DNA of 43,728 nt from Nemertoderma westbladi. Lineage: Eukaryota > Animalia > Xenacoelomorpha. Numbering within the stretch: the first letter of the stretch is position 1; every line of letters starts with the position of its first letter. The notes below the pieces were generated by a model that saw only the letters and a program-made list of their open reading frames with translations, had not been told where the DNA came from and searched no databases. This document shows positions 2,028-33,063 of this stretch, piece after piece. The stretch covers positions 1 to 43,728 of the forward strand of contig JAUCBJ010003180.1 of NCBI GenBank assembly GCA_032718475.1, read 5' to 3'. The position numbers were made by a program, and so were the translations under genes.

Positions 2028-2324
2028 GCCCACTTTGAAAAGCTCCTCAGTAATGACAGGGTATTGCCTGATAAGTTTATAGAAGTAAAAGTGTCTGAGT
2101 CTGTACTCCCAGATATTCCCATTGGCGATATCTCCTTTGCAGAAGTGAAGGCTGCTGCAAAGAGCATTAAGACCAATTGTGCCAGTGGAGTAGATGGTAA
2201 TCCCCCTGAGGTCTTTAAAATACCTGAGTGTTTAAAGCTCATCTATCCCATCATAGTAGACATGTACCGAACAACAAGGGTCCCACAAGAAATAAAAACA
2301 AATAAGTTGGTGCCAGTTCCCAAG
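2028..2324 (+). mobile_element. RTE-clade LINE fragment (linker/RT N-terminus), left half, interrupted by PA EVE
   Basis: Translates ...AAKSIKTNCASGVDGNPPEVFK...NKLVPVPK. It is near-identical to the minus-strand RTE sequence at about 18350-19010. Confidence 0.85.
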
Positions 2325-4476
2325 TAAAACACAACATATCTCTCGAATGGAGATTTATTTACTAGTAAATAACACAAATACTATTACAGTTTTAAATCGT
2401 TGGAACGATATCGTTAATCTGTGGTAGCAGAGATTTGTTGTATTGATCAGCGAGATAGAGAACCATTGGGTTCTGTATTATGGATTCGCTACATTTAGCC
2501 TCGGATCTCTCCCCTGGCAGCTGTACAACCAATCTCCCGTTGATGGTGGCACAGCCCATGATGTAAATCCTACGAAAATTTGCTAAAAAGCCCTCCAACT
2601 CATTATTGTTACACACAGCCTCAAAATATTTTCGGTGTGAATTAGTTTAGCGATGCCCTCTAACTTAGTTAGGGTACTAGGTAGATACTCTGCCCAATTT
2701 GTTATACCATCGGATTCGATTAGCTGCATGGCAAGGCAAAAGAGTGGATAATACTCGCAGTTTGTATACGGATTCTAGACAGACCACGATTATGTCTGAC
2801 TTTAACAGGCCATATCCCCAGTCAATAACAAATAACTGATATATCAGCCCTCACGCCATCTTCCGGCTCCTTGTAATGGAATATCGTACAATCGTGGTAA
2901 ACCTCTTTGGCTTTTATAGCAGCAGAACGACTAACCATCTGAAACACAACAAGGGGTAATTTCGCTGAGTCACTTGTTAAATGTGCTGGGCACTTTATTA
3001 CGGCCCCATGGAGCATTTGGGTACTCTCGGTTCCCACACCTTCAGCAGTAATTATAGGCAATACCACAACCCCATCATTTTGGTTGTACATGTATGAGGC
3101 GACTGGGCGTAACATCGCCTCATACATGCTTATGAACTCGTCCCCTATGCTTGGGCTAAATGTCGAAAGTATTTGGTCGCTTATATTAATGGCCTCATCA
3201 TCAACAGTATTGTACGATTTACGTCCTATAGACGGGGGTGTCCCTTCGGGATTGGCGCAGCCGAGATAGGATACAAATTCCTCTATTATAGGGTCAGCTT
3301 TAGCTGACGGTATTGTGAAATTATGAAGCGTCATCCCCTCGTCGATGAAGACTCGCTTTCTAGATTCTTTTGCGCGTCCGACGCCAAATAATTTCTTCTC
3401 TGCTCTAGACAGTAGATCGTTCGACCTTCTTGGCTCTTTAATGTTGTTCACCCAATAAGGTAAATACCTTCGTACAGTATCCAGATTAGGAACTAGACGC
3501 GATAATAGATTCTCACAAGCCTTTATGTTTGTTGTGTTGGTCTTTAAGGGTGCCTTCTTCATTCCGAGTGGGAACATTGTCTTCCATTTAATTTGACACC
3601 CCTCATTAAGCGGGGTTTTATTGGCATGCGTTAATAGATCGAAAGATTTCCTAGGAGTGTACATACTTTGGAGTGCAATTCGAAGATATTCATTCTTCAG
3701 ATCCATCCTCTTAGCCAGGCACCTTGGGGTCTCCTTGGTTGGGTCTACGGTCTGTTGTTTAGTAGTGGTAGCACTTCTTTAGGCATCTCAAGAACCTGCG
3801 GGACCTCATTGGCCCGGGCTGTAATACGTATCCGTGCACAGTCATAGTCTGACAGCTGCAGTTTGATTTTAATGAGTGCATCCTTGATATATGAGATCTG
3901 CTGGTTGTTTAACGAGTCCACATCGCCGGCCCATAATTTCCGGCTTAAAGAAATCGACAGCTATTATAGCAGTGATGTTCCTCACGCCTTTAACTATCAA
4001 TGTCTCTAGTTTTTGGTTGTAGGACCGTGTTGAATTCTCCACATAGGATATTGCCACCTCTATCAATTGTGGCTCGACCTCCAATTGTGCAAGAACTTTG
4101 TTCCTATTGTATTCCGTCCCATTGTCGATGAGCCCCTTTTTGATCAAATCAGGCATGTAATCCATTAGTCTTTCTTCCCATCCCGGAGGAGTATATAGCC
4201 GACGCGTTGAAATAGATGTCCCTCTGTCAAGACCTTCTAACACAACATATTCATTGACTATATGTCCTTTCTCCAGACTACCTTTTATCGTAAAAGAGTC
4301 ATGTATTTGAGAGCACACTATGTAATGAACGCACCACATCCACTTCATAAGGGACTGCTGCTCCTCGTTCCCCCTAAACCACCCTGGTCGGGTGGTGTCC
4401 GGAATTAGTGTAAGAATGCCAGCAGGTAAGGTGCTGAGTAGTTTAGATATGTTTTAATTAACCTCTTGCTATTGCT
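2325..4476 (-). pseudogene. PA: Endogenous orthomyxovirus-like PA (polymerase acidic) segment, copy 1, near full length, decayed
   Basis: ORFs 3869-4348, 2822-3706 and 2392-2616 are consecutive pieces. Endonuclease motifs WCVH / VLEGLDR / YMPDL / IEVAIS / YNQK match influenza H41, IIEGRDR (E80), FLPDL (D108), FIEIGV (E119) and K134. HGAVIKCPAHLTSD resembles YGFIIKGRSHLRND. The C-terminal ELEGFLANFRR...ESIIQNPMVLYLADQYN resembles QLEGFSAESRK...ECLINDPWVLLNASWFN. The start codon is mutated to ATA (4448-4450), with frameshifts near 3930, 3760 and 2620-2830. Confidence 0.9.
4460..4476 (-). promoter_or_regulatory. Viral segment terminus (cRNA/mRNA 5' end, promoter arm) of PA copy 1
   Basis: AGCAATAGCAAGAGGTT begins 26 nt upstream of the former start codon. 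It is identical in copy 2 (37196-37212), where homology stops at the same base, and it resembles influenza AGCRAAAGCAGG / AGCAGAAGCAGAG. Confidence 0.8.
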
Positions 4477-4491
4477 GGGTAATTAATTATG

Positions 4492-4774
4492 CCCAAGAAG
4501 GGCAACCTAACACTATATGGTTCTTTTCGGGGAATCTCATTGATCTCGATTGCTGCAAAGCTATACAATAGGATTCTATTAAATCGCATCAGGGATCCCA
4601 TTGAGAGACTGCTCCGTGGAAATTAGAATGGGTTCCGTAAAGGTCGTGGGACCATGGAGCCCATTTTGGCACTTAGAAGGATAATTGAAGAATTGTCAAA
4701 AAAGAAAGACAGGCATCTGGCTGTTATCTTTGTTTTTGGCACTTAGAAGGATAATTGAAGAATTGTCAAAAAAG
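4492..4774 (+). mobile_element. RTE-clade LINE fragment, right half (RT start), with terminal 41-bp duplication
   Basis: PKKGNLTLYGSFRGISLISIAAKLYNRILLNRIRDPIERLLRGN*NGFRKGRGTMEPILALRRIIEE continues the 2028-2324 piece. Bases 4664-4704 are repeated at 4734-4774. Confidence 0.85.
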
Positions 4775-7096: not shown

Positions 7097-9372
7097 TCCC
7101 ACCCCCCTCAGTCCAAAACTTGGACGACTAAATGCTACTAAACACCACACTAAATCAAGGTGCCCCCTCTAGCAGACAGCATTTCCCTACAGCTCTCCTG
7201 TAGGTTTTCCTGTCTTTCGCACCTATCTTGCCACCTATACGCACTTCTACCGATCGGACTCTTCCGTCCTCATCGGAGAAGTGCCCATAACTCTCGCCAA
7301 CCGCCATTGGTTGTTGATGATGGTATCATCCGTGATGATCACGAGATCCCACTCTCTTAACTCTCTGTTCGTGTTCCTCCACTTGCTTCTTCTATGAAGC
7401 GTGGGTAGGTATTCCTCAACCCACCTCCTCCAATACTCTGCGCTTATCGCCTTAGCGACTTTCCAACTCTGGCGGGAGTGTATGTCATCTGGGTCTACAC
7501 CCCGCATATCGATGGTCGCTGGCCTTTCCATTAGAAAATGGCTGGGCGTCAGCACATCTAGTGACTCAGGGTCATCATTCTCCGGATATAGCGGTCTGCT
7601 ATTAATGATACCCTCACACTTCGCAAGTACTGTTCTCAGGACGTCCTCCATAACCATATGGGTGTTCATCAACTTCGTCATAAGACGCTTCGAACTACCC
7701 ACGAGTCTCTCAACGCATCCTAGTGTATGCGGTGCATACGGTGTCCTCCTCTCCCACTTTACTTGTCGTCGTCTCATGGCTGCCCTGACTTCCTCCCCTT
7801 CTAAGACGTCCAAGGCCTCTGCCATCTCGTTCTCCGCTCCCACAAAGTTGGTTCCGTTGTCGGAGTATATTACTGCGATCGTCCCACCTTTGCGGTCTCT
7901 GAACCTCTCTAAGGCATTAATGAATGCCGATGCGGTTGCATCTTGGGCGAGTTCTATCCCTACCGCCTGCGTGTTATTGCATACAAAGATGATACTGTAG
8001 CGTTTCTCCGTGTGCCGCATCACCTTGATCTTTATCAGCCTGAACATGTCCACACCGCAATGCGTAAATGGCGGGTCGTGCTGTCTTACCCTACTCGCCG
8101 GTAGTGGTGCCATCTCCTGTATGGCTCGCTCCTTCTTCGCTCGTCGGCAGGTTTGGCACTGCCCCACTACCGCTTTTACCTTCTTCCTCAACTGTTTGAC
8201 CCAAAAGTTCCTCCGTATTTCCGTAAGGGTTCGGTTGGTGCCCCCGTGCAATATCGACTTGTGGGAGTCCCATATAATCTGGTGGACTATTGGCGATCCT
8301 GTGGGAATGATGATGGGTTTCGGTGGTACGACTATGCTGTTGTTGTATCCCACCCTAGAGTTCATTACTAGAATCCCGTCGTCATTAAGTTGTGGCGACA
8401 GCGTGATCAGCTCGCTGTCCCGTCGAAGATGCTGTTGTTTACCGACGCGTTCCACCTCGTTGCCATAGTTCTTCCGTTGTTCATAGCGGATTACTGCTTT
8501 GGCCGCTCCTTCCAGATCTATTGTTGTCCTAATCTTCATGTCTTTGCCAACTCCCCTGAGGAAATTCCCGAAGGCTCTCCAGTACGCCACTAATTTCTTG
8601 GTCTTGTACCAACTAGAGCTGTAGCTGAGGAGTTTATCCGTTGGGTTATCGCACAGTTCTCCTGGTTTTGGTTGCACGTCCCTTATCTCCCTCACCATCT
8701 GGGAGTATATCTCTTCTCCCTCTGAATCTCCTTCTTCATCCTCCAATACTGCTTCTCCTGAGCCCGGGTCCACCTTTCTCATCGGCGGCCAGGCCTCCCT
8801 GTCGCTCAGAAACTGTGGCCCGTGTTGCCACAATACTTCCTTTTTTAAGAAAGTGTGGCATGCCACGCCCCTCGATAACAAGTCCGCTGGATTCTCGTCC
8901 GTTGGGCAGTAGTGCCACCTTTCTAATTCTGTGGTCGCCCTTATTTCGTCCACCCTATTTGCGACGAATATAGGGTATCTCGTCTTCTCATTATGTAACC
9001 AGCCAAGTACTACCGTGGAATCCGTCCATTAGTGTGTCTCCACTATGTTGGGAATAGCGTCCATTAAGTAGGCTGTGGCCCTAACTCCTAGTCTCGCTGC
9101 TGTTAACTCGAGCTTCGGAACCGATGCTGAATCTGGTGGCGTTGACTTCGCCTCGCTGAAGGCAAGTCTGGGTTTGTGAGGCCCCTCTCGTTGTACTAAA
9201 TAGAGTGCCGCTCCGTATGTCTCTAGTGACGCATCGGAGAACATGTGCAGATCCAGATTCGTCATGTCCCCATCCGGGAAATACACTCGTGGCATGCTGT
9301 ATGTTCCCATATGCTCCAAACCTTCTGTCCACTTACACCACTGTTTCCTGATCTCTTCTGGTACCTCTACGT
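7097..9372 (-). mobile_element. BEL/Pao LTR retrotransposon A, 3' part (RNase H, integrase, PPT)
   Basis: RNase H motifs LHMFSDASLETYGA...VPKLELTAA...WTDS...WHYCPTDENPADLLSRG. Integrase motifs H-x3-H GG...CQTC, CGVDMF, IYSDNGTNFVGA, GCVERLV and a GPY/F-type tail ending RRAVGKCCLLEGAP* (stop 7155-7157). A purine tract lies at 7097-7109; sequence to about 6870 may be a partial 3' LTR. Confidence 0.92.
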
Positions 9373-11922
9373 TAGGGAGTGTCAAAAAATTTTTATTTTC
9401 GATAATAAAGTTTTCCTATCAGAAATGGGATGCCAAATTTATTAAAAATAACTACAAAACAAATGAAAACTTTTAATTTTTACATTTGACCCCCGCACGA
9501 GCCAACTTTGTTTCGAACGTTTTTTCGAAAATTTAATTTTTTGGAAATTTTTTTCCTTTGATATTTCAACTTACCCATATTTTATAGCATTCACGGTTTA
9601 TTAGTTATGTGTAAGAAATTATAATTTTCCAATTTCACATATATTCTACCCCCGCACCTAGCCACCAAAGTAGGTAGTCGCTTACTCAACAAATAATAGG
9701 CTTATCTGCAATATTATAATATTAAGCAGGAAATTTGAAACGGAAACGTTTCTGATTTATTCATAAAACGAAATAGTAATGTGCACCGGTAGGCCTATGC
9801 CTTTTCATACTTCACTACTAACTAATGTGCTAGTGTCTTACGTAGAGTAAATTAGATCTGTCAAACTAATTGTTAATAATTATTACTATGCTGCGATCTA
9901 AATCTACTTATGATTTTTTTGGTGTCTCATTAGAATTAAAGGGCTCGGTTTTACCAACCGGATTACAATGTATAAATGTTTCTGCGCGAGCAGAAAGTCA
10001 ATGGGGTCACAAATACAGACGAGGAATGTCGTAGTTGCGCTGCTTCAGTTCTTCAAATTTGGGCAATGGCAGGAATTCCGGCAGTTTCCTCGGTGACTCG
10101 TCTTGGTAGTCGCATCAAGGAACTCTTTGATCGTAGTCGTAAACTTAAAGAAATTCCCGTTTCTCGCAGAACCAATTTGGCGGTCAAACAACAGTTTGCC
10201 AAATATGAAGCGGAATTGTCTAAACTATTGGATGTGGCCGTTTGTAAATGCTATTTTGAAAGTAAATGTCTGTGTAAGCCGAACGACAAAGTCCCTGAAT
10301 GTGAACGAAACTTCTTATTAGATCAACGCGGTCAACGAATAATGATAATTTCCAATGCGGTAGATGTTACTGAATCGAAAATACGAGCGCAAAGGAGGAA
10401 GCGTAATGAATGTTCTATGTCTGGAGTCTCCCATATTAGTTGCGTATCCCTGGGCGATAGTGCTATTTTAGACAGTGGTACAGATAGCGATAATAATGAA
10501 GCAAATTCTGAATTATCCTGTTGCGAAAACTCATTGGAGAAGGTAATATTATACCAACCTACAACATCCACTCCAATTTCTAAAAGACTTCGTCTAACAA
10601 ACGTTGCAGAAATCTCTGATAGGTATAATCTTAGTAATCGCGCTGCTGCTGCAGTTTACAATTCAGCAATATGTGACTCCGGGTCATCGGCAGATATTGT
10701 TGATCATAATAAGATCAGAAGAGAGAGGCAGAAACTTAGACAAAATCTACAAATCGGATGCGGTTTAATTCAGCCCATTGGCTTGTATTTTGATGGACGT
10801 AAAGACCCCACCTTAACTGATGGAGGGCGGCAGATAATTAAAGAAGGGCATTTCGTGCTTGTTGGGGAACCTGGCTCTGCCTATTTAGGCCACGTGGCTC
10901 CAGCGACAGGAGCATCAGCTGATGTTACTTCTGCTATAATGGACTTCATCGATTCTAGGTTGGTAAGTTGTTGATATACTAATGTACCAGTATATATACT
11001 ATGTAGTAAATAAATATTGTAAATAAATAAATAAATATGTTGGTATGTTGGTGATATACGAATGTATGCTGTAGTAAATAAATATTGTATATAAATAAAT
11101 AAAAAAGTAAATACGAAATTAAAATTCGGAATGTAGGCTACTTTTAAAGTTTTAATCTAAAATCTAGAAACGTATAAATATATAAATAATTATATAAGTC
11201 AGTGTAAATGTGAAATGAAAATATGGACGTCGGACGTTACAAATGTATGTATATACTGGTTGGTACTTACTGAAATAATAAACGTACCTATAGAGGCCTA
11301 TAATGTATAGGCCTATAATAGGCGTATATATTTAGGCGCATTAAACTCAAACTGAAATGAACTACCGAAAAATCTAAATACAGTAGGCAATAGGAAAAGT
11401 TATGTAGAGGTATAACGGTATTTATTATTTAAAAATTATTGTTTACATTGATTTTTTTCAGTTGGATGCGATAGCACCAGCGTTAATACTGGCTGGAAAA
11501 ACGGAATAATTGTGAACCTCGAACGGAAACTAGAAACACCACTTCAACATGCGATATGCCTCCTTCACATCAACGAGCTTCCACTTCGACATCTGATAAT
11601 AGAACTTGACGGTACTACAACAGGAAGCAACACATTTTCGGGTCCAGTTGGGAAACTCCTTCATAATTGTCACAAATTTAGCCCTGTTATATTTGAGCCT
11701 ATTATCAATAATAATTTTCCCGAACTTGAACAGTCTGTTTCTTCCAAACTTTCGAGTGATCAGCGATATTTATTTGATATCTGCAATGCAGTAATATCTG
11801 GAGAACTATGTGAATCAACCGCCAATAAAACTCCAGGACCTATCAGTCACTAGGACTGCGTCAAGAATCCTTCGGCTTTATGTATCTACTGAAGATCCAT
11901 CTGATGTACTTTCCCGTCTTTC

Positions 11923-13372: not shown

Positions 13373-14517
13373 GGGGGGGGGGGGGGGGTAGCGCATTTTC
13401 TGACCAAAAAGTCGAATTTTTGAAACATATCCTATCTGATGCGGAATTTCATGCTGAATCCAAATATGGAAACCGTTTTCCCATATCTTGCTTAGTTTTC
13501 GATATATATGGGATAGAAGATACTGGCTCCAATATATTGCGATATCGGTAAGGCAATGAAGTTTGGGGTTTGCATTCAATTTCTGCAAATTTCTGTGCTC
13601 AGTGGTGCTAATTGGATGTCTCCACGAGAAAGAGCACAAAATTTGAATAGAAGGTATTTTTTTATGATTATTGGACCTACTGAACAGTTTATAAGACAAC
13701 TTCAAGTCTACGGAATGAAGACGGGACTCGAATAAGCGACTCCACGGTCTTTGCGGGATTACACGGAATAGACTTATCGGTCATCAGAGATCTTCAAAAT
13801 GTATAATCTTCAGTTCTAGTGGTCGTACGGAGTTCGTTTAGGGCTCATTCGAAAGCTCTTTTCTCAGAAACCAAAGTTACCATTTGGTTTGGCAAACTCT
13901 TGAAAGCTGCCTGAGCAATCATAACTTGAACAAAATTTGCAAGGCATATTTTACCCAAATTCATGTTTTGTTGCTTTACAACCATTTTGTCTTAAATCAA
14001 ATGGTAACTTTGTTCTCTAAGAAAAGAGCTTACGAATGAGCCTAAAACGAACTTCGTACGACCACTAGAACTGGAGATTATACATTTTGAAGATCTCCGA
14101 TGACTGATAAGTCTATTCCGTGTAATCCCGCAAAGACTGCAGAGTCGCTTATTCGAGTCCCGTCTTCATTCCGGAGACTTGAAGTTGTCTTATAAACTGA
14201 TCAGTAGGTCCAATAATCATAAAAAAATACTTTCTCAATTAAAATTTTGTGCTCTTTCTCGTGGAGACATCCAATTGGCACCACTGGGCACAGAAATTTG
14301 CAGAAATTGAATACAAACCCCAAATTTCATCGCCTTACCGATATCGCAATATATTGGAGCCAGTATATTCTATCCCAGATATCTCGAAAACTAAGCAATA
14401 TATGGGAAAACGGTTTCCATATTTGGATTCAGCATAAAATTCCGCATCAGATAGGATATGTTTCAAAAATTCGTATTTTTGGTCAGAAAATGCGCTACCC
14501 CCCCCCCCCCCCCCCCC
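13373..14517. mobile_element. Non-autonomous foldback DNA transposon with TTAA TSD (Sola3/Kolobok-like)
   Basis: TTAA lies at 13369-13372 and 14518-14521, with poly-G/poly-C termini. Arms at about 13373-13890 and 13995-14517 are reverse complements around a spacer of about 100 bp. Confidence 0.85.
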
Positions 14518-15301
14518 TTAATAGCTAATAAATCTCTTACTGAGCTACAAATGTTACTGGAGAAAGGTCCTATGAAATGGGAAATTCCATGTCATTCCCA
14601 GAATGTGGAACAATTGGTTCAATGCGTGTCAACTGTATCCAAACGAGTCTGCGGTGTTAAGGAGAGAGATGGCTACATTAGAACTCAATTATCTAGTCGC
14701 CAAACAATGCCAAAATTTAATTCTAAGAAAGATTTTAAGCTAAAGATAAACCTTAATATCCCCAGTAGTACAGATGGTGTTTAGTTTGAGTTAATGGATT
14801 CTGATTTTTCTTATATTATTGTGTTGGTGTTGATTAATAAAGCATCTTGATAGTACTGACCTCGTCCAGACTAATTACAATGTTCACAGACCCAGTTCTA
14901 CTGTTTATTATCACAAATTTTAGGGATAAGTTGGTTAAATATACACAATGACAAACATAATGACATAAATAACGATATTTTTTTGCGTATTCGTGAAAAG
15001 CAACCTACTTTGGTGGCTAGGTGCGGGGGTAGAACATATATGAAATTGTAAAATTATCGTTTCTTACAAATAACTAACTAACCAAGAATGCTATAAAATA
15101 TGGGAAAGTTGAAATATAAAAGGAAAAAAATTTCATAAAAAATTTAATTTTTGAAAAAACGTTTGAAACAAAGTTTGCTTGTGCGGGGGTCAAATGTAAA
15201 AATAAAATGTTTTCATTTGTTTTGAAGTTATTTTTAATGAATTTGGCATCCCATTTACGATAGGAAAATTTAATTATCGAAAATTTTTTTGACACACCCT
15301 A

Positions 15302-16985
15302 CTCTACGTCCCACTCATCCTTCAGTTTGTATACTTTCTTAAGTATCTGTCTTCCCGTGACTAGTAGTGGGGATGCTAGGCCTAGGGGATTGTATATCCT
15401 TGCTATGTACGACACATAGCCCCTCTTTGTGTGGATGTCTGCGCCCTCCTGGCTCAACTGGTACTTCAGTTCATCCGTCTCTCTGTTCCATACGATTCCC
15501 AGCGCCTTTTGTTGGGACTCTATTCTCTTGTTCGCCATGTCCTGCCCCTTTGCTGTTGTGGGATTATCCATGGTCGATCCTGGTCTCTCATCTTTTATCG
15601 CCTCGATAAATTCCTTCGAACTGGATTGGAATTTGGTTAGGTTGAAGCCGGATCCTTTAAGGATGTCGTGAACCTCGCACCCTGTGTCCAGTAGCTCCTT
15701 AACCGTATTTCCAGACTCCATCCCGTCGTCTACGTAGAAGCCGCGTCGAATCATATTGACGGCTCTAACACTGTATTTATCTTTCTTTCCCTTTACTGTG
15801 TCTCTTACGGCCGTAGTCGTCGTAAATGAAGACGACTTGGCTCCCATATTCTGTACTATCATCTTGTACATCAGTATTGTCGACGGGTCCACGTCGCCGT
15901 TGTACCATAGGAAGCGTTGACTGTCGCTATCCTCTTCCGTCACACGGACTTGGTTGAACATGCCTTCTATGTCGCAGGTGAAGGCGTGTTTCCCGTTTCT
16001 AAATCTAAGTAGGACCTTCTAGCAGATAGTCATTTAGGCATTTTCCATTGGTCTTTGCCGACGCATCCACTACCATCCGCAGTTTACCTTTCTTCGGATC
16101 TAAAGCCACGTGGAGTGGCAGGTAATATGTCCTGTCCGTGTTCGGTTCGTCGACCGGTAACTCCACGGCCCATCCTTTCTCGACGTACTTTCTGATTGTC
16201 TTGTGGATGTACTCATTCTTTTCGGGGCTCCGTTTTAACGTCTGTTTCAACTTACGAAGCCTCGTGAGCACCATCCCTTTATTATCGGGCAGTGGTAGGT
16301 TTGGTAGCTTCCATTCCATTCCTATGGTATACCGCCCCTCTTCGCATCTCATAGACTCCTCTACGCTCTGCTGGGCCTGCTTGTCTTCTACCGAGGACCC
16401 GACCCCGGTTTCCTTTAGCCCCTCAAAATCTTGCCTGAGCAGTCTCTTGAGCTGTTCCTCCGCTCTCTCATCCTCTATTTCTTGCATAGTTCCCGCAAAC
16501 ATGCATCCCGATGTCTCCGACATCCTAAATGGTATCTTACTCTTAATTGGGCCGCTCAGTGTCCACCCGAACGGTGTCAAAATAGCCACCGGGTCACACT
16601 GCCTGTCTTCGCCGAAGACCGTTTGCATTCTCTCGTGGGCAATCCATTCCTACTATGATGGATACCTTCCTAACGTCCACCTCTGGGATTGAGAAGTCGA
16701 TATCATCCAGGTATTTATATTGTTCGACCTCGATGTTGGTTGGCCGCCTGGCATTGATATTTATTGACTCTATCACTTGGATGGGGTCGATGGTCGCCCC
16801 GTAGTCGCATCCTGGTGCCACCGCTGCAATCGCGCACCGTCCGGTCCTCATCTCCAGGACCTCATCTTTGCTAGAGATTGATGTTACCGCCATTCTACTT
16901 GGCCTCGTTCTCAATCCTATATCTTCGGCCACCCAATCCTCGACTAATGTGAAGGCAGCTCCACTGTCGACCAGCATCAGTGTGG
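15302..16985 (-). mobile_element. BEL/Pao LTR retrotransposon A, 5' part of pol (protease and RT)
   Basis: Protease LVDSGA, then AILTPFGWTLSGP, YYLPLH...KLRMVVDAS...LNDYLLEGP, DIEGMFNQV and FYVDD. It is contiguous with 7097-9372 once the hAT element is removed. Confidence 0.9.
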
Positions 16986-18340
16986 TCACAAAATATGAAC
17001 GGGAGATTATAAAGTTCTCGATGGCTGGTAGAGAATCTTCCCATTTCATCCACTTCTTTAATAATTCTCCCTTAAGTGGATCGTCCCATGAGTGGTTTTC
17101 AAGCCACATTTGTTGTACTAAACTCCGAGCAATCAATATAACTGGGCTAATAAATCCCAATGGATCGAAATAAGTGCTCAGTATACTTAAACAAATCCGC
17201 TTAGTCCGAACTGGATTATCTCGTTGTTTTAGTTGGAAAAACAGGATATCTCTTTCTGTGTCCCATTTCAAACCAAGGGTCTTAGTTTCTGGGAGATCAT
17301 CTTTTATTAGATCAAGATCTTTCGCTCCTCGATCTTCTACCGGGATCGACTCCAGAAACTCACGGGAGTTGCTGGTGAATTTAGTTAATCGAAATCCACC
17401 TCTTGTTAAGCACTCTACCGTTCCTTTAGCAATGTTAATGGCTTCTTCGACTGATGGAAGGGACTTTAGATTGTCGTCCATGTATATATCCCTCTTGATG
17501 TTGTCAATCACCTCTTTAGAGAAGGCGTCTCGGTTGTCATCCGCAGTGGTGCGCACCACGGAACAGGCGTTTGAAGGGCTCGAGATTATCCCAAAAGCCT
17601 GGATGGTCATCCAGTACTCCACCGGTTTCTGGTTGAGTTCTCCTTCAGGCCACCACAGAAATCGTAGGCTTTCTCGATCTCTATCCAGCGCCTTGACTTG
17701 TAAGAACATGCCTTCTATATCTGAGGCGAAAGCAATTGAATATTGTCTTAATCTTAAAAGTATTCCCAACAAGGATTGGAGTAAGTTGGGTCCGGGTAAC
17801 AATTCAGAATTAAGGGATTGGCCCACATAGAGGGCGGAGCCGTCAAACACCACTCGTACTTCATGGGGTTTACCGGGTTTGGGAACATAATGGTAAGTTA
17901 AATAATACGCTCTCTCAGTTATAGGTGTTTCTTCCGGTACTAGCTCCGCATATCCCTTGCTAATAAACTTCTTCAACTGCGTTTGATACATTTCTTTAGC
18001 TGAAGAATTTGCCGTAAGGCGTCGATGTAGTTGAGCAATTCTTTTCTCCGCCAAGGGTCTGTTGTTTACGAACTTTGGTTCTCGCTTTCGGAAAGGTAGA
18101 CCGATCTCATATCTACCTTGATCTTTAAGAAAACGTGTAGTTGTCTCTTGGATTTGCTTGGCTCTATCTTCCTCTACCGATAGGGCCTTATCGTAGGAAT
18201 TGGGCTCTACAGCCTCTTGAGTAAAGAATCGTACGGCGTGTTCGTCCCGAGTCTTGGCATTATAACGTTCAATGACTGGGTATATATATGTCATAATTAG
18301 TAATTGATTTTGGTTTGTAAATGTGCGGCAATGCAGTTGT
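16986..18340 (-). mobile_element. Fragment of a second, distinct BEL/Pao family (RT domain)
   Basis: RYEIGLPF...VRVVFDGSA...SLNSELLPGPNL...DIEGMFLQV...IYMDD...FDPLGFISP...ISRSYF. It is clearly different in sequence from the RT at 15302-16300. Confidence 0.85.
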
Positions 18341-18466
18341 TCCCCGAAAATTATCCGAAAAGAACCATAGAGTGTTAGGTTGCCCTTCTTGGGAACTGGC
18401 ACCAACTTATTTGTTTTCATTTCTTGTGGGACTCTTGTTGTTCAGTACATTTCTACTATGATGGGA

Positions 18467-18776
18467 CGCTATATAGCGAATGTGTGAACTGGGTGCGACG
18501 GCAACTGAGTTTCGCCTTGCTGAGGGCCTCGCTCATGTGCGTCTGTGGCTCTAGGTCTGCCCGTAAACGCCCAGCAGGCATATATCAGGACATCGCTCAA
18601 GCCTCCATCCGGTTGGCAAATGCCGATACAAGAATAAACTAATTTTGAAATACATTGTACAGTAGCGTGGTGGTGGGTGAGGTTTTTCTTATTTTTTATA
18701 ACTTTTATGCGTCTTTTTATATATTTGTCAAGTTTGTCATTAAAAATAAAAAAAGCACTAAGCAGCCTAAAAAAAA
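18467..18776 (+). mobile_element. 5'-truncated CRE-like (REL-endonuclease) non-LTR retrotransposon
   Basis: C-terminal motif YSECVNWVRRQLSFALLRASLMCVCGSR and an A-rich tail. A 12-bp TSD ACTATGATGGGA lies at 18455-18466 and 18777-18788. The clade call is from motif memory. Confidence 0.7.
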
Positions 18777-19097
18777 ACTATGATGGGATAGATGAGCTTT
18801 AAACACTCAGGTATTTTAAAGGCCTCAGGGGGAACACCATCTACTCCACTGGCACGATTGGTCTTAATGCTCTTTGCAGCAGCCTTCACTTCTGCAATGG
18901 AGATATCGCCAATGGGAATATCTGGGAGTACAGACTCAGACACTTTTACTTCTATAAAGTTATTAGGCAATACCCTGTCATTGTTGAGGAGCTTTTCAAA
19001 GTGGGCCTTCCAACTGATCGGATGGTGATTCAGCCTTAACCTTGGTGGTTGGTTGGCTTTTCCAGTAAGCAAGTTGATCGATTTCCATGCCTGGGAT

Positions 19098-19724
19098 ACT
19101 ACTACTACTACTAGGATCGGCATGCTGCATTGCAGCTGCATTTTTAAGAATGCTGTGCCGGCTTGTCAACAAAATTGCACTGCCACAACTCCCTATCACC
19201 CATGACATTTGCTAGATCATCCGCATCTTCAAGGCCAGTGTCCTTTAAGATGCGTCTCAAGAAAGTCATGGGCTGCCCACCATGCTTATTCACTCCATGA
19301 GGCTGCCAAAGTACAAAATTATGCACTGGCTGGTCCTCACAGCGAAAGAAATGTCCTGCAAAGCGGAGGCGATTTTGTTCTAGTGTCAAGCTTGGGGGAA
19401 CCAATGAGACACCTCCAATGTTATATAGTGTCTGGTTGGAGATGTGTGCATTCTACTTGACACAATGAACCCGGTGTGGCATTCTTGTGTAGGTGCCATC
19501 CAGAGATTTGGGGTCCTCAGCAGTTAGAGCCCAGCATGGACTCCCGTAGAGGAGTACTGGAACTACTGCTGCTCTAAATAATCGGACCTTAAGTTTCCGA
19601 TTAATTATTGGTGACTTCCAAATCCTGGAAAGTCTATTCAAGGCTGCCCATGCCTTTCCCTTACGTATTCGAAGGTCCTCACCTGACTTCCGGATCCATG
19701 ATCCCAGGTAACAGAAGTCGTCCA
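19098..19724 (-). mobile_element. 5'-truncated RTE copy with (TAG)n tail
   Basis: VDDFCYLGSWI...KAWAAL...VLLYGS...RLRFAGH C-terminus with a (TAG)n tail at about 19098-19113. A 12-bp TSD CATGCCTGGGAT lies at 19086-19097 and 19725-19736. Confidence 0.85.
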
Positions 19725-22314
19725 CATGCCTGGGATGATTGCCTGCTGTCGTCAGCATCATTGATGGCATCAACCTGTTGGTTTATTAGCTCCTGTAGAT
19801 TATCAGAGTACTGCCTGTTCAGGGACCTAGATGCAGCCTTAACTGCATTCTTGGCCATGTAGTCTGTTTGAGTGGGGACTCTTTCTGTGCCTTAGAGGTA
19901 CTTTCGGCACTTCTGAATTTTGTTGTCAGTCCAGGGGGCCCTTTTCCTGTTTCGAGGGTATACAGGAACTGTTTCAGCAGCTACTAACTAAACTGCTTCT
20001 GTGAAGGCAGTAGCCCTCACAGTGATCTGCCGCCTCAGAGGCAAGAACCTCATACATGATGCTCAGCTGTAGTGTGAAGCTGGATCTCACACTTGGCTGT
20101 TGCAACAGAGAGGACCAGTCATGCCGCAGCAAGGCGGATTTCGTTGTTCTGCTAGCATGCAGACTAAGTCTTACCTTGGCCACAATAAGGCAGTGATCAC
20201 TAGAGAAGGGTCGAAGTGTAAATGCATTACAGTCTTGTATAGAGCTCCTGTATTTCCTACGAAACAGGATATGGTCTATCTGGGACTTGTTACCACTGGG
20301 TCCACTATGACTATGAGTCCATAGCTTTCCAGTTCGCTTCTTGAACTGGGTTCCAGCCGAAATCAATCCATTTCCAGAGATAAAAAAAATCCTGAAGATG
20401 GATGGAATTTCGGTTAACACTATTGCTATTGACCCAGGGCAATTTAGGTGATTGATGCAGACTTCATTAAAGTCTCCCAGGAATGTTAAGAATGCATGTT
20501 GATCCACTCCATCAGTAGCTGCTTGTAGATTGTGGTAGAAATTGTCCACCCCCTCTACAGTGGAAACTCTAGTTGGAGAGTAGCACACAATCAGAACCAC
20601 CTTAGGAAACTTCTTAGCCAGTCTTCCAGAACATGAGAAGTGTCAACGGATGATGCGGTTACATATTTGGTCTATTTTCTCCAATGCTGCATGTGCAGTT
20701 GGATTAATCAATAGACCAATTAATTCCATCCTTGCCACTATCATCTGCTGTGTTCGGTTGATTGGTGGATCCGTAGGTAGTATATGTGAAGGAGGGTGTA
20801 GGGATGGGTGTAACGATGTGTTGGAAAAACTATTTTTGTTCCCCCTGTTAATCTCCCTGTTATACAATTTTCGACACAGCCGGGAATACGCAGTTTTCGG
20901 CGTAGCATTCTTGTGAATGTGCCATCCAGAGATTTGGTGTCCTCAGCAGTTAGAGCCCAGCATGGACTCCCGTAGAGGAGTACTGGAACTACTGCTGCTC
21001 TAAATAATCGGACCTTAAGTTTCCGATTAATTATCGGTGACTTCCAAATCCTGGAAAGTCTATTCAAGGCTGCCCATGCCTTTCCCTTACGTATTCGGAG
21101 GTCCTCACCTGACTTCCGGATCCATGATCCCAGGTAACAGAAGTCGTCCACATGCCTGGGATGATTGCTTGCTGTCGTCAGCATCATTAATGGCATCAAC
21201 CTGTTGGTTTATTAGCTCCTGTAGATTATCAGAGTACTGCCTGTTCAGGGACCTAGATGCAGCCTTAACTGCATTCTTGGCCACTGTAGTCTGTTTGAGT
21301 CGGGACTCTTTCTGTGCCTTAGAGGTCATTTCGGCACTTCTGAATTTAGTTGTCAGTCCAGGGGGCCCTTTTCCTGTTTCGAGGGTATACAGGAACTGTT
21401 TCAGCAGCTACTAACTAAACTGCTTCTGTGAAGGCAGTAGCCCTCACAGTGATCTGCCGCCTCAGAGGCAAGAACCTCATACCTGTTGCTCAGCTGTAGT
21501 GTGAAGCTGGATCTCACACTTGGCTGGTGCAACAGAGAGGACCAGTCATGCCGCGGCAAGGCAGATTTTGTTGTTCTGCTAGCATGCAGACTAAGTCTTA
21601 CCTTGGCCACAATAAGGCAGTGATCACTGGAGAAGGGTCGAAGTGTAAATGCATTACAGTCTTGTATAGAGCTCCTGTATTTCCTATGAAACAGGATATG
21701 GTCTATCTGGGACTTGTTACCACTGGGTCCACTATGAGTCCATAGCTTTCCAGTTCGCTTCTTGAACTGGGTTCCAGCCGAAATCAATCCATTTCCAGAG
21801 ATAAAATCCTGAAGATGGACAGAATTTCGGTTAACACTATTGCTATAGACCCAGGGCGATGTAGGTGATTGATGCAGACTTGCATTAAAGTCTCCCAGGA
21901 ATGTTAAGAATGCATGTTCATCCACTCCATCAGTAGCTGCTTGTAGATTGTGGTAGAAATTGTCCACCCCCTCTACAGTGGCAACACTAGTTGGAGAGTA
22001 GCACACAATCAGAACCACCTTAGGAAACTTCTTAGCCAGTCTTCCAGAACATGAGAAGTGTCAACGGATGATGCGGTTAGAGATTTGGTCTATTTTCTCC
22101 AATGCTGCATGTGCAGTTGGATTAATCAATAGACCAATTAATTCCACCATTGCCACTATCATCTGCTGTGTTCGGTTGATTGGTGGATCCGTAGGTAGTA
22201 TATGTGAAGGAGGGTGTAGGAATGGGTGTGACGATGTGTCGGAAAAACTATTTTTGTTCCCCCTGTTTATCTCCCTGTTATACAATTTTCAACACAGCCG
22301 GGAATTCGCAGTTT
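19480..22314. repeat. Tandem duplication, two units of about 1.42 kb
   Basis: About 19480-20897 matches about 20905-22314 (ORF starts 20600 and 22018, offset 1418). Each unit contains nested RTE pieces plus about 260 bp of unassigned DNA. Confidence 0.9.
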
Positions 22315-24069
22315 TCCTTTTATAACCCATATAGACGTAAACAAGTGTTTCGTGTCGTAGCAACAACAGGTTGCATACGGACCTGCTACACTTTTTGAAA
22401 ATACATTTTGATAATTTGGGAATTATAAATGTTGTCATATATAACGGTTGTCAAAAAACGGTATATCTCCTCAGTAAAGGGACTCACAAAATTGTTGGCA
22501 GCAGTCATCCCACTCCATACCACATCCCAAAAAAAATAGCAGGTGAATGGTCATCAATTATTGTCAAACTTTCACTAATAATTCGATTATGTTTGCATAA
22601 AAAACAGACATTAAGAAAATTTGGTTAGTATAATTATAAGTAGCTCAATGATGGTTCATTCACGTAAAATTCCTGAAGAGATTGATCACTTTAAAATTGC
22701 CATCCCTACCCAGCTGCAATACGCTGGACAACAAGGTAGATGAGATAAATGATATAAAATTGAGATAAATTATTATATAGGAACAAAATGTTCCAGAACT
22801 ATATATGTGTATTTATTTAATAGAATAATTTAATTATCACAACTACATTTAAAAATAAATGTATATAATTGTGTTAATTCTAATCATACCACAAACAGCT
22901 TTCAAATAAAAAAACTATTTAGGTAGAAGAATAACTGCAAATGTAACTTGGGGCAATATAAATATCACATTAAAAATCCTGACACGACCAAATGTATCTC
23001 ATTAAGATTTGTAAAAGAAAATTATAGGGATGAGAGGGTTTCCGAAAGAATTACTTTTCAGTAGCAGTTAGAAACATGAATTAATATAATATAATAGTAA
23101 TAATAATCATAAAATATGTAGTTAATTTCTTCAAACTTACTTCTAAATAAATTGAAGTGATAAAGTTTGTCCTTCTTTATGATGGATGTTGTTATATGGA
23201 ACCTGGCAGGTTCTACCTGCTCCGTAGCTGCATCTATTACAGCAGACTGAGCCCATCCAGATATCACCCAACCACCGCGATATCTTTTCAGTTCGTTACG
23301 GATGTGATTCCGTGCCTCATCATTAGTGACGGATTGATTGTGCCTGAGGCTATAAATAATTATTTATAAACTAAATAACTAAATAATTTGGTACTAGGAT
23401 GTTGTCAAGGATCTGAAGGTGCGAATAAGCAGACTAATGGAAATAATCACGTTACTGTGGCAGGTTATTACAACCAAAACAATTAAATAAGTCAATAGCA
23501 GGGGTTTCAGTTTATATGTATATTAATGACAAAAGATGAAACAAAGCTCTTAATAGCGTGGTAAAAGTCAGCACTTCTACAAAATACCCTATATTTCGGG
23601 CACAAAACTTACAGTGTAATAAAATGCGTTAACTAACATAACATAAGGTACATTATAGGTATCTGTACGCACTGATATGGGATTTGTGTCCAGTTTCTCA
23701 CCCTCTCCATATCTCGACGAGATACTAAAATATATGCCCGAGACCAATCTGATTGTGTGTATATTTACTTTGGAGTTAATGTTAATCTTTATTTGATATA
23801 TATACCAAATCTGTTACTTGAAGTACATCTTTAGAGAAGAATAACATCGGAAATTCAGTGTTCGAAAACATGTGTGGTATAATAATGTTATCCTCCTTAT
23901 TGATTATCATCTTGTCCCATTTAGGTCGAAACGAGACTACCCACTCCTTGTGAACTGTGCGAAAGCATGGGCATGGTTGAACTCTAATCAGCCCTTGCTC
24001 CCTTGCTGGCGCAAACATAATCCATAGAAATCTGTATCAAAAATATATTTATATTTATAATAAAATTTA

Positions 24070-24960: not shown

Positions 24961-24971
24961 AGAATATCCAA

Positions 24972-27900
24972 TAGGGTGTAGTGAATTTTCGAAATTTCTG
25001 ATTTTCGTTCCAGAACTCAGTCAAAATATGAGGTTGGATATCAATAGCAACTATGCCATATATTTTTTCAATCTGAAAAGTAGAAATCATGTCTCCGTGC
25101 CACTGAAATTTTCAAATTAATTAACAAAAATGTCATATTTGTCTAAATCTAGATGGCTCCAGAAAGAGAACCAATTATCGGATTTTGTAGAAATCCTGTT
25201 TTTTGGAATCTATGGACAGAGTAGAATGCCATAGGAAGACACAAAATTAATTTTGGCAGAGTTGAAAAAATTTTATTTTTTAAAAATTTCAACTTTTTCT
25301 GAATTGTTGTTGGAATGTTTCTGAAATGGTAAATTGCAAATTAGGTAATAGCAAAAAAAAGGTTAATATGTGACAAAATACTTCAGTTGTGATGTTTTTA
25401 GAATATAATTAATTGTTTTCAGAAGACAAATGCTCTAATATAAGTTCAATGTTGTTAGGATACACCGTTTATGAATGCTAGGATTAAGACTATCTCATGT
25501 TATTTTCAGAATACAAATTGTTTCTTAGTGTTAAACGCTTTCCGTTGTTTCCTGGCATCAATCCTCGAAAGTATTAGTTTATCTCTCTCATTACTCCCAA
25601 CAACTTCCATCGACACTTCAGTCACGATTCGGACCATCCTTTCAACAACCTGAGTGTGACATGGGTAGTCAAGATTAGGAAGATCGAGATCTTTAGAAAC
25701 AAATATGCTACTGAGATCACAATCTAAAATATCCTTAGTCAATGGTGGTTCAGTGATGATGTTAACAGTCCAATCAATCAGACTGATGTAATCATTGGCT
25801 TCAAAATTGATCAATGGAGGCTCCAGCTTTCGAACATTGCTTGATAACTGGATGGAGTTTAAAACCTGAGCTTTCTTAATCTTGCATACAGCAAGCTTTC
25901 GAATGTGAACTCGCTGATCCATTAACATGGATATCAGTAGATTTTCAGAGTGTGCAAAGAATGCATTACGTTGGATTGTTGAATCGACTGTAGCTTTATG
26001 TTCACCATCGAGGTAGCGGGTCCACTTTACAAGTTGAAAAACGTTTAGTTATCCATCTTTAATACTATTGTGGCATTTAATCAGGAACCACATCGGAGAA
26101 TACACATTAATGATATATTTAACAATAACAGTAAGTCCCTCACTAGGTGAATGATCTGATATATATATGCGACATATACGATTTGCGGTGGTAACCCAGT
26201 TTGAATGACTGAGCTTACCAGGATCAAGTCGAGCCAATCTTTCATCACAATGTCCATCAATGATCGCGCATGTAATTAAATAAAGATATTTTTGATCCGT
26301 TGACAATTCCTTGATTACTGATTGTGGAAGTTTTGTGAAGGTTTCTGATGTGATCGGCATATATTCAATCACATCCATTCTTGGTAGATTACCATTTGCA
26401 ATTCGGTCTCCAATTAAACCTTTGAATGCTTTAGGACCTGAAGTAGGCCCATCAACTAAGGTAAATAGGTGGCGCAGGGGGAGTTCATTCATATGCAACA
26501 TGCAGATAGACCACTGTAAAGGTCTTTCAAGTTTCAATTCTAACAAATGAATCACACCAGCATGAACTCCAGTATTTAAAGGAGTACCATCACAACCAAC
26601 AACTACAATATCTGACAAAGACAAAGACCTTTCCTGGAAGAAATATAGTATTGATGTTAATATATCCTCGGCTCGGCCTCCCTTGGGACTAACATGACTA
26701 AGATAGCATCCTCCTGGTTCTGTCACCATTACATAATGTTCTTCTAATTTGGATTTTACATGGTTAGATGTGGATTCATCTTTTATTAGAGTTAAATCCT
26801 TTCGGCCATCAAAATATAATCCAGTGATTGATTCTGACCGAGAAAGTGATGATTCAAATATAGATGATCGACGTTTTGCTCGTTTTCTTCTGATATTGTG
26901 ATGATCAACAACATCTTTTGATGAGAAGCTCACCCCTTTTATGTCTTGAGATGTTGCTGAAATAATTGCAGCTGCAGCGCGATCGGGAATTGCATATCTA
27001 TCAGCTTCCCTACAAGCAGAAATGTACAATAATTCCTATTTTGAGATGTACTGGAATGGCTGGATGTTGATGGTTCAGGAGGAAATACATCCATCGGACT
27101 TTGATCTTCAGGTGGGTTAGAAGATTCAGTTACCGTAGAAGATTTGGCAACCCTTTCCTGTTCGATACACTGCCTCTTATTTTGAGCTTCCTCCCTTTCC
27201 GCCCTGCGTTCATATTTATTATGTTTTTCAGTAGCAATCCTTGCTGCATTACCATCTATACCTCCAATATGTAATAAACGTCCTGCTCTCTGATCCTCCA
27301 GAAAATCTACTTCAGCATCATTTGGTTCCTTGGCAATTTCAAATAATTTCTTAAAATGTTTCTGATATTCTACTAGTCGCTCAGAGTAAAACGTCTCCAA
27401 TTCTCGCGCCTTGGGTACTTTGCTAACATCATCACGAATATTGTCCAACTCACTCAAGATTTTCTTAGTCACTCCTATTAGGGTATAGGTGGGAATGCTG
27501 GCACGGATATAAACAGAAATAACATCCTTGGCAGCTAATTATGCAACATAGGATAGTTTTGGGTTGGAAGGAATTGATGCTTGCAACAATTTAAAATGAT
27601 GTAGAACATCACCAATAGTCGGAAGTTGGGTCAGTGGCAACTGTGTTGGACTCCCAAATAATGAAGTGTTAACCTTTTGACGAGTTCCTTTCGACATTTT
27701 AGAAATATAATTAAATCGTCAGAATTTAAAAGTCCTATATACTAGTCTATAGTTTACAGCAGTAGTAGCAGTTTAGTTTTTAATGCATACCGGTACAAAT
27801 CATATGAATGTCATAATGTCATAAATTAATTACACACTAAAGTATGTACTACTAAAGAATAAATGTGAAAGTAAAAGTAAATAAGTGTATGCCTAGCCCT

Positions 27901-28545
27901 TGTCCGGTACTAACATACAGATAGATTTTAGGACAGAAATAATAAATGCTTGTTGGGTTGATTTATCCAGACATAGAGGAGGGAATTTTGAAATCTATGA
28001 ATCAAAAGTTGTCATATTAAACGCTAGTTAGCGAGCTGTCATAAACTGTGTGTTTTCTTTAAACTATTCAATAAATTTAACTAATAAATTATTAATTAAA
28101 TCAAATTAATTAAGGCCTATTGGCAGTTGTATTCTAAAAACTCTTAGTTATTATATTCTATGAACTTCATTATCGTATTATAAGTACTTGTATATTTATT
28201 GGCATTTATTTATTTTGCAATTTAAATTTTTCCATTTTTGGAAAAATGTTAAAATTTTGAAAAAATAAAATTTTTTGAACTCGGCCAAATTTAATTAACT
28301 GTCTTCCTATGGCATTCTACTCTGTCCATAGATTCAAAAAAACATAACTTTATTTATTTACCTTACTTTTTATTTAAACAAATATGACATTTTTGTTAAT
28401 TAATTTGAAAATTTCAGTGGCATGGAGACATGACTTCTACTTTTCAGATTGAAAAAATCTTTTGCATTGTTGCTATTGATATCCAACCTCATATTTTGAC
28501 TGAGTTCTTCAAAAATCAGAAATTTCGAAAATTTACTACATCCTA
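24972..28545 (-). mobile_element. Second hATm-like DNA transposon
   Basis: Imperfect TIRs of about 320 bp start TAGG(G/A)TGTAGT(G/A)AATTTTCGAAATTTCTGATTTT and enclose a transposase. No matching 8-bp TSD is visible. Confidence 0.85.
25506..27697 (-). pseudogene. hATm-like transposase, intronless, with stops and frameshifts
   Basis: MSKGTRQ...QLPTIGDVL, FLEDQR, GLYFDGRKD, GCDGTPLNTG, WSICMLHMNELPLRHL and YPCHTQVVERMV. It is homologous to 9888-14784. Confidence 0.88.
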
Positions 28546-29799
28546 TTGAGTAACATTTGTTTCATGCTATTTACACATTTACTTCTAAACGTTTATTACA
28601 TGCCGCCCGCTTGGACAAAATAACATGAAAAATATATATTTATGGACGTGTCGCAAACGTATTTTCAAACGTTTGCCATGTTCAATAAAAATGTGATATA
28701 AACGTTAAAATTACAAGAAATTGTTATCAGGACAGGCTGGAAGCAGGTAAGATGTTTGAAATCTCTGTATTATGAACAGTAATATTAGGAAAGACACAGT
28801 CGAAACTCAGTAGGTGGAAATATGATACAGCTGTGGTGATGGAAACTTGCTTTAGAGCTATTAGTTAATGTTTGCCACTTGCAGATTAAAACTTGAGAGA
28901 ACAATTTACAGCAGAGTTGATGTTGAGTACAGTGGGTTGAGAAGAATTTAAATGGAAAGATGATGCCATATTCTGCTGAATTAACTGAGTGGAGGTACTT
29001 CTGGTGATCTTCATACATATGCAGATAAGGTTAGTGCGGTAGGTCCCTCTAGTGGGTGTAGTAATACAAATAGAACAGGTGTCATGGATTCAGTCGACTG
29101 TGGGCTTATTAGCCCATGCTCGATAGTCATGGAAGATCGATGTGATTTTGCTGCTGCTCTAAATTCAGCAAAAACGACTCTTTTTGCAAATTCTCCGAAT
29201 TCAAAATGGCCACGAAAGTGTGCCATATTGGAATCGGACAGTGAGCCAGAAGAAGATGCAATAATTGTGGATAATATTGTAGAACCATCTTATTGCTTTA
29301 AAGAAGGTACCGGTACAACAAAGGGGAATCTACAGAGGGAGGGGTACTATTAAAGATTCAGTGTGGATAGTTCCACTGAACCCTTACGATGGAAATCATC
29401 TTTAGAGCAGCAGCAGAAGACATCAAAAAAATGTATAGTAGATCAGTTGTATAAGGTCTCAAGAATGGCCTATCAAATACAAAAGGCCCAAAACAACGTT
29501 GAAATGGGTTTCAAGTGATTCCATTCAAATTCAACAAATCTCGGTAGCATTCATTTCATACTTTGAGTTTCAGCTTATGGAGACAGGATCCAATCGGACA
29601 TCTTTACTGCAGTTTGATAGTTTAAAACACACCCTGAAGGCCTTAGGAGATACCGCTCCAAGGTAGTCCGTGTCTGGGAAGCTACATAATCCCAAGCGAG
29701 GGAGATAGACTCCCTTCAGAAATTTCATGATATAAAACATGCGGATGCCTTAGAAGTGATAAATAAAAATGACATTTGAGATGCAGTACTTAAGGCACA

Positions 29800-33039: not shown

Positions 33040-33063
33040 CCTGTTTGTAACCGGGTGCAATAG

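Follow-up and report, generated by a model that had tools for sequence, protein, structure and literature searches.

A 43,728-nt contig stretch of Nemertoderma westbladi (GCA_032718475.1, JAUCBJ010003180.1; hereafter the window) contains, at 2325-4476 on the minus strand, what is almost certainly an endogenous viral element (EVE) derived from the PA gene of an orthomyxo-like virus. We call it copy 1; a second PA EVE, copy 2, lies 33 kb away on the same strand (35600-37212). The account that we consider probable as a whole is that copy 1 is the decayed copy of a PA segment that entered a long interspersed nuclear element (LINE) by target-primed insertion, copy 2 stemming from a separate event.

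Copy 1 is a single decayed gene spanning about 685 codons, with its reading frame broken into five pieces (A to E) by frame changes near 3935, near 3755, at about 2750-2710 and near 2630. There is also an in-frame stop (2822-2824), and no start codon is found at the position where copy 2 starts; copy 1 makes no protein. Reading down the minus strand, a 26-nt 5' untranslated region (UTR; 4451-4476) separates the terminus at 4476 from the first codon position at 4450, and is followed by piece A (3938-4450; the endonuclease domain, residues 1-171, with its H, E, PD, E and K), piece B in a different frame (3757-3930; the end of the endonuclease domain and the linker, 57 codons that are 77% identical to copy 2), piece C (2753-3751; the PA-C domain with the internal stop, seven codons shorter than copy 2 near 3475), the short piece D in the third frame (2625-2750), and piece E (2392-2630; the C-terminal LEGF...NPMVL helices). 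The terminal stop at 2392-2394 is followed by a 67-nt 3' UTR (2325-2391). Pieces A to C were placed by means of copy 2, and pieces D and E by a profile of four relatives that included no window sequence, together with a shuffle test; the short piece (2583-2774) is weak alone, its score being reached by 7 of 2000 shuffles (it beats 1993 of 2000). The motifs occur in the order known from PA, with H at 4327, E at 4237, PD near 4153-4148, E at 4060 and K at 4012, then the GxxIKxxxHL strand near 3006-2975, LEGF near 2597 and NPMVL near 2472. We conclude that copy 1 is likely a broken but complete copy of a PA segment. An earlier reading made from the sequence alone (the sequence-only reading) had given the coordinates, the strand, the 26-nt 5' UTR and the stop at 2392, all of which are borne out. 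It was right also to see one gene with PA motifs in order, but it divided this gene into three open reading frame (ORF) pieces where we find five, with four frame changes and an internal stop, and it described a GxxIKGxxHL motif whose second G is present in copy 2 only; copy 1 has GAVIKCPAHL, with C where five other aligned sequences all have G.

Homology to PA rests mainly on profile comparison. Four of the five matches among 1.84 billion representative sequences were PA proteins (E-values from 7.8e-28 to 1.3e-8); the fifth, P0005, was dropped as a repetitive false hit. A profile of these relatives matched 37 PDB sequences, every one a PA/P3 chain. For its C-terminal two thirds Thogoto PA came first (E 7.8e-38) and influenza C was next best (3.3e-18), while for its N-terminus influenza B and A were best and the match to Thogoto was not significant. 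When the window was scanned with a profile of four viral PA proteins, again free of window sequence, copy 1 scored 186.9 and 73.5 bits, copies 1 and 2 were the sole finds, and the best domain in the reversed window scored -7.3. Piece E matched Pfam Flu_PA with an E-value of 5.5e-4, below the curated cut-off, and Thogoto PA with 1.3e-9; it was the sole Pfam match of the six pieces of copy 1 given, and copy 2 had none. The C-terminal PA-C domain with its PB1-binding helices is recognised by sequence profile, the structure model of this part being unreliable. In size, too, the gene is as expected of an Articulavirales PA/P3 (about 685 codons in a range of 620-720, with UTRs of 26 and 67 nt).

Several other searches returned nothing. 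Comparison with the PDB by phmmer gave chance matches only, whether for pieces A and C or for copy 2. Word-index protein searches with the copy 2 ORF, with alignment A1 and, against longer proteins, with piece E were blank, but these blanks are uninformative because the A1 search missed its own members. Scans of IMG/VR with alignments A1 and A3 found no relative, a metagenome scan returned only the contig of the relative P0003 (which has no recognisable ends), and the ESM Atlas held no usable match for P0003. No further viral gene was recognised among the 79 window ORFs compared with Pfam or the 7 compared with NCBIfam. The proposal of a near-complete endogenous PA segment from an undescribed Articulavirales lineage, made in the sequence-only reading, is supported by profile, fold and junction evidence, and similarity to orthomyxoviral PA was found by both profile and structure. 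Its term 'influenza-like' suits the endonuclease domain but not the C-terminal two thirds, where Thogoto is closer, and the nearest sequences are those of unclassified orthomyxo-like viruses.

The fold of the endonuclease domain was assessed with copy 2, which is unbroken and shares 73% identity with copy 1 over residues 1-171. A model of its residues 1-215 (predicted local distance difference test, pLDDT, 68; predicted template modelling score, pTM, 0.71) returned influenza endonucleases in every row shown of a Foldseek search. Eight of 48,161 chains reached a Z-score of at least 8, all of them orthomyxoviral PA (best Z 12.7, root-mean-square deviation 3.2 over 155 residues), and the best match among viral models was the PA of Wenling orthomyxo-like virus 1 (A0A2P1GNP8; E 2.7e-9, TM-score 0.64, 26% identity). 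The model thus shows an N-terminal PD-(D/E)xK endonuclease fold. Both copies have H42, E72, D101, E131 and K147, of which H, both E and K align with residues of influenza A or C, and D is placed by motif order rather than by alignment. The corresponding catalytic residues of influenza are H41, E80, D108, E119 and K134, and the endonuclease sites of tilapia lake virus (TiLV), Thogoto and Dhori are dead (PMC10709604, PMC11139864; these and other papers are cited from the parts available). With all of H, E, D, E and K retained, cap-snatching of the influenza kind is likely for the live virus.

Both flanks of copy 1 belong to one reverse-transcriptase frame, on the plus strand, of a very high-copy LINE family (2028-2324 before the insert and 4492-4734 after it, the latter matching RVT_1 with E 0.0025). 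Another copy of this LINE, at 18350-18466 on the minus strand and 95-97% identical to the flanks, shows the empty site, and we could thereby delimit the insert as 2325-4491, between two copies of CCCAAG (plus strand, 2319-2324 on the segment's 3' side and 4492-4497 on its 5' side; at the joint 2318>4492 the six letters fit both sides). The insertion is thus marked by a 6-bp target-site duplication without loss of target sequence. Two letters of the duplication at the 3' side also complete the likely segment end (microhomology). At the other end, the insert is 15 nt longer than the terminus at 4476 implies: an extra leader on the minus strand (4477-4491), belonging neither to the LINE nor to the shared terminus, forms a near-palindrome with the target site and agrees with the neighbouring UTR, read as reverse complement, at nine of 10 letters. 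It may be filler DNA or a cap-snatched leader.

Three of the six listed runs hold most of the copy 1 stretch, and among the listed runs holding it there was no RNA run. Single contigs span 2295-4521 in X1 and in X2, a run from a different sample and study (X3 is from the same sample as X2), and the empty joint is present in X1, X2 and X3. Because X2 departs from the window at just two letters and by an in-frame change in length of 21 letters at 3475, the frame breaks are common to both studies; X3 shows a further allele, and the insertion is old enough for internal polymorphism. Viral sequence is therefore joined to host DNA, with inactivating changes, in more than one sample, as is characteristic of a non-retroviral EVE. 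Where the sequence-only reading looked for genomic reads at the junctions, contigs of two studies do reach both, with some 30 letters of repeat at each, short of unique flanks.

The first 17 nt of copies 1 and 2 are identical and the similarity stops exactly at this terminus. The 17-nt sequence is present in the window at two places only, one in each copy, and the same is true of a 12-letter version with one mismatch allowed, for which the chance mean is 0.24. Because 17 letters remain identical despite saturation at synonymous sites (below), comparison of the copies gives good support for reading it as the true conserved 5' segment terminus of the coding-sense strand, likely including the promoter. 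It resembles influenza segment starts. Matches to it in 12 IMG/VR contigs, none of them at a contig end, were taken as chance. At the other end, the 3' UTR holds a perfect 18-nt (9+9) palindrome (2372-2355) and then a small hairpin (2338-2354), and two similar ...TTTACT ends occur, at 2364 and 2323. A 3' terminus of copy 1 at 2325 is plausible; both candidate ends finish in UACU, like those of firefly orthomyxo-like segments (10.1101/237586, from the part available). The segment terminus given in the sequence-only reading stands, and its 3' UTR of about 70 nt agrees with our 67 nt, with the 3' end itself plausible.

In the route that we favour on balance, LINE target-primed reverse transcription of an untailed antigenome-sense RNA, a virus would have infected the germ line, presumably replicating in the nucleus like other orthomyxoviruses. 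Nuclear replication is established for influenza. The LINE endonuclease and reverse transcriptase would have primed on the two letters of microhomology at the RNA 3' end, and the reverse transcriptase would then have copied the whole untailed segment, with the 15 nt added at the far end as fold-back filler. Copy 1 would afterwards have decayed neutrally by about 1%, the extent estimated from its one stop (95% range 0.03-6%).

The insert could instead be viral cDNA captured at a staggered double-strand break by end-joining repair, which shares the viral origin and which we judge possible but a good deal less probable. Such repair would suit the near-palindromic 15-nt filler, the perfect 9+9-nt fold-back near the other end, the two letters of microhomology and the missing tail; it sits poorly with a clean 6-bp duplication without target loss, since a clean target-site duplication is the usual mark of endonuclease and reverse-transcriptase insertion. 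An LTR integrase is unlikely, as the insert ends are not TG...CA. It is improbable, though worth weighing, that the template was a run-off viral mRNA without poly(A), with the 15-nt leader as a fossil of a cap-snatched host primer. That leader does precede the terminus exactly and the endonuclease residues are kept, and TiLV lacks an oligo-U polyadenylation signal (PMC10709604, available text), as the copy 1 segment, where none is evident, also appears to. Influenza primers are 9-13 nt long (PMC11139864, likewise), a length which these 15 nt approach and yet exceed; moreover the leader's nine-of-10 match to the reverse complement of the UTR and its folding back on the target are those of filler, and copy 2 carries about 250 nt of other sequence at the leader position. 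The break-repair and run-off-mRNA explanations both overlap with target-primed insertion.

Copy 2, which the sequence-only reading missed in reporting one PA copy, emerged from a repeat search of the window as a 69% identical stretch. It has the 17-nt terminus, a 27-nt UTR, a start codon at 37185 and 529 unbroken codons, which sit within a 681-codon frame; the C-terminal 160 or so residues are absent, and it ends where it adjoins a multi-copy repeat. Across the 516 codons in alignment, the proteins of the two copies are 75% identical, with proportions of synonymous and nonsynonymous differences (pS and pN) of 0.83, which is saturated, and 0.14, and with 113, 56 and 302 differences at the first, second and third codon positions. 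Conservative changes make up 68% of the amino-acid differences, as against 49% for random base changes. These patterns suggest that the divergence arose mostly under purifying selection in live viruses, and, with synonymous sites saturated, likely two viruses and two insertions. That the copies are independent insertions we regard as very probable, and copy 2 is likely derived from a different, related virus in a separate event, likely younger than copy 1. The contrary view, that both copies go back to a single ancient insertion, duplicated within the host and diverging thereafter as host DNA, would account for the same segment, strand and locus and for a branch asymmetry towards copy 1 (below), and is nevertheless very unlikely given the excess of pS over pN, the third-position bias, just one premature stop across both copies (that in copy 1), unrelated flanks, and similarity that ends exactly at the terminus. 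There is slightly less still to be said for copy 2 as a domesticated viral gene expressed as a host protein: it has its start codon and 529 open codons, but a frame would be expected to stay open at decay of less than about 4%, and copy 2 stops short of the PB1-binding C-terminus, where a repeat takes over.

The neighbours of copy 2 deserve separate mention. About 250 nt adjoining its terminus (37213-37465) are on the same single-depth X1 contig and finish in ...ATTGTTACT on the minus strand, resembling a segment end; a 106-codon frame rich in Cys and acidic residues lies here on the plus strand (37235-37555). Neither the stretch nor its frame had a Pfam, NCBIfam or PDB match, and it is possible that a head-to-tail join links copy 2 here to part of another segment. 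The truncated end of copy 2 is capped by a multi-copy repeat (34573-35599) with a 295-codon ORF on the minus strand (34643-35530).

A number of observations weigh against parts of this account. With regard to the segment ends, pairing of the 5' and 3' ends in a panhandle test came to -4.8 kcal/mol, which 43% of internal windows equal, and a second candidate 3' end lies 41 nt further inward, where a perfect 9-letter fold-back comes after it. A poly(A) or repeat tail is usual at the end of LINE retrocopies; none is present at the 3' end of copy 1, whose 3' UTR has no poly(A) and no A-run of five or more, and for this reason we do not count copy 1 among the classical retrocopies of processed mRNA. 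Break repair, too, would suit the inverted stretches found at either end of the insert. With regard to the two copies, trees put nearly all of the change on the copy 1 branch (0.28-0.36, vs. 0-0.005 for copy 2), and of the polarised columns 38 have the relatives agreeing with copy 2 and 23 with copy 1 (p 0.07), such that part of the difference between the copies may be decay; the asymmetry is tempered by the great distance of the relatives. These six-row trees have long branches and no outgroup (such as influenza, Thogoto, Quaranja or infectious salmon anaemia virus), and show copies 1 and 2 as sisters and nothing further. With regard to the endonuclease, PD and E are separated by 30 residues, vs. 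11 in influenza A, the PD position resting on motif order, and the full-length model is poor (pLDDT 42), its Foldseek matches to PA having a TM-score of about 0.2 and little weight. With regard to the junctions, some 30 LINE letters on each side fall below the 31-letter bridging rule, tying the insert to a LINE target and not to a unique locus, and X1 may be the source sample itself. Copy 2 and its adjoining 250 nt are covered in X1 and not in X2, X3 or X5, copy 1 is not covered in X5, and no contig runs across; we did not count this as absence. That copy 1 is an assembly artefact or viral contamination is scarcely credible, for although both flanks are a very high-copy repeat and X1 depth is 4.3 on the insert vs. 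35-56 on nearby pieces, there is a target-site duplication, the breaks are shared by two studies, several insert alleles occur in X2 and X3, and the insert is present in runs guessed to be DNA.

The nearest sequences come from unclassified orthomyxo-like viruses (one from Xinjiang sediment, one from dog whelk, and two metagenome contigs), with 20-27% identity overall. These four relatives, all RNA or metagenome records, are collinear with the EVEs over the whole protein (636-674 aa), share the GxxxKGPxH strand and the EGFxANxRR helix, and are 39-51% identical to the C-terminal piece; the branch that carries the EVE pair is 1.5-1.7 changes per site long. In alignment A1 neither the PD motif nor the second E motif is present in the dog whelk PA. 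As far as the available part of PMC6085071 goes, this PA is described as Thogoto-like, and the virus is not among the contigs that its authors flagged as EVEs. Two unnamed metagenome proteins, L001 (P0003) and P0002, are themselves full-length PA of further undescribed orthomyxo-like viruses, with intact endonuclease motifs.

Among solved structures, Thogotovirus PA (PDB 8p0b, 8z85) is the best for the C-terminal two thirds of the EVE protein; its endonuclease site is degenerate, with no activity detected (PMC11139864, available part), whereas in the EVEs all five catalytic residue types (H, E, D, E, K) are retained. Influenza A-D PA/P3 resembles the EVE in endonuclease fold (Z 12.7), in the alignment of H, E, E and K and in domain order, and differs from it in several ways: identity in structural alignments is 12-17%, the EVE has about 19 extra residues between PD and E and no evident oligo-U signal, and copy 2 as a single sequence finds no influenza chain in the PDB. 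Since unclassified viruses and Thogoto PA score higher than influenza, and since the site is not degenerate as in Thogotovirus, these comparisons place the source virus outside both the influenza viruses and the thogotoviruses. We take the dog whelk virus and Wenling-1 to be members of a provisional 'Metamyxovirus' clade. In the available text Petrone et al. 2023 (PMC10636315) describe this clade as aquatic, with whelk and lizardfish members, and define it on PB1; the two viruses are not named in that text or in four text supplements. We infer a link of the EVE to this clade, no PB1 having been found in the window. More speculatively, and we think this doubtful, the window would hold the first fossil of an aquatic 'Metamyxovirus'-like branch: a transposon-rich trap archiving one polymerase segment of two viruses end to end, with its promoter, an influenza-type cap-snatching site on a Thogoto-like body, a possible fossil of a cap-snatched primer, and a memory in antisense PIWI-interacting RNA (piRNA).

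Both copies lie in a stretch consisting almost wholly of transposons, and copy 1 is antisense to its LINE, for which reasons a present role, if any, could possibly be as a source of antisense small RNA. An argument from a uni-strand piRNA cluster was dropped, as by ORF strands about seven elements are on the minus and four on the plus strand. Outside the inserts, CpG has an observed/expected ratio of 0.76, which fits the invertebrate host of the sequence-only reading.

Other elements in the window are as follows. An interruption at 18467-18776, with a 12-nt duplication, splits the LINE copy at 18350-19006, and a LINE endonuclease region holds a 1.4-kb tandem duplication (19472-22316; 96%). Two Bel/Pao retrotransposon pieces with integrase and Peptidase_A17 are on the minus strand (7247-9675 and 15003-18441); 300-nt inverted repeats (9373-9675 and 15003-15301) enclose a 332-codon transposase-like ORF (9976-10974), which shares an FDGRKD motif with the split transposase-like gene (25506-27538, of no Pfam family) of a DNA transposon with inverted ends of about 330 nt (24969-28548). 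A fold-back element at 13373-14513 has arms of about 520 nt that are 93-95% complementary and 103 nt apart. At 30502-34285 there is a Penelope-like element, with a 679-codon reverse-transcriptase-like ORF, GIY-YIG (E 4e-5) and three 145-nt tandem repeats, flanked by 176-nt inverted repeats that are 99% identical. The end of the window (39327-43728, plus strand) is likely the start of a Maverick/Polinton-type element, with ORFs of 358, 759 and at least 174 codons, the last having a weak DNA_pol_B_2 match (E 8.6e-4).

Nearly all that is known of deep-branching orthomyxo-like viruses comes from RNA contigs, whose hosts are uncertain and which mostly lack the segment ends. Through the EVE, such a lineage can be linked to one definite animal host and its germ line, and the 17-nt terminus that the two copies share could be used to find the other segments of the virus by their ends. 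The PA combines an apparently intact influenza-type endonuclease and a C-terminal domain like that of Thogoto, and so is relevant to the question of whether cap-snatching was ancestral in the order, with later loss in Thogoto and TiLV; the clean duplication and missing tail make this an unusually readable case of an untailed viral segment entering a genome.

Orthomyxoviral EVEs have been described before, in sources that we cite from their available parts. Those of mosquitoes are quaranjavirus-like; the Aedes list comprises NP (180), PB1 (6), GP (9), HP2 (23) and HP3 (5) and, in that part, no PA, and twelve EVEs are of whole segments, some NP, GP and HP3 copies spanning the whole segment (PMC10956553). 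Tick EVEs are likewise quaranjavirus-like and are of PB1 and NP (PMC6580184, PMC10675110). In fireflies, where such EVEs are also reported in PMC6191289, four of 30 pieces are of PA, averaging 22% and covering at most about 60% of a gene (10.1101/237586). The available parts of PMC11282168, PMC12770441 and PMC12548735 added nothing on such EVEs. In the literature covered, outside which most subscription papers fall, we found neither a whole PA among EVEs nor any EVE from this lineage. Orthomyxoviral EVEs as such, including whole segments of other genes and truncated PA, are thus already known, and what is new here is an unusually complete and well-bounded PA with a twin. Like the EVEs of Aedes, of Ixodes and other ticks, and of fireflies, the copies in N. 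westbladi are broken viral genes among transposons; unlike the published ones, they include a whole PA with its UTRs, set in a clean target duplication, accompanied by a sister copy, and drawn from a deeper lineage.

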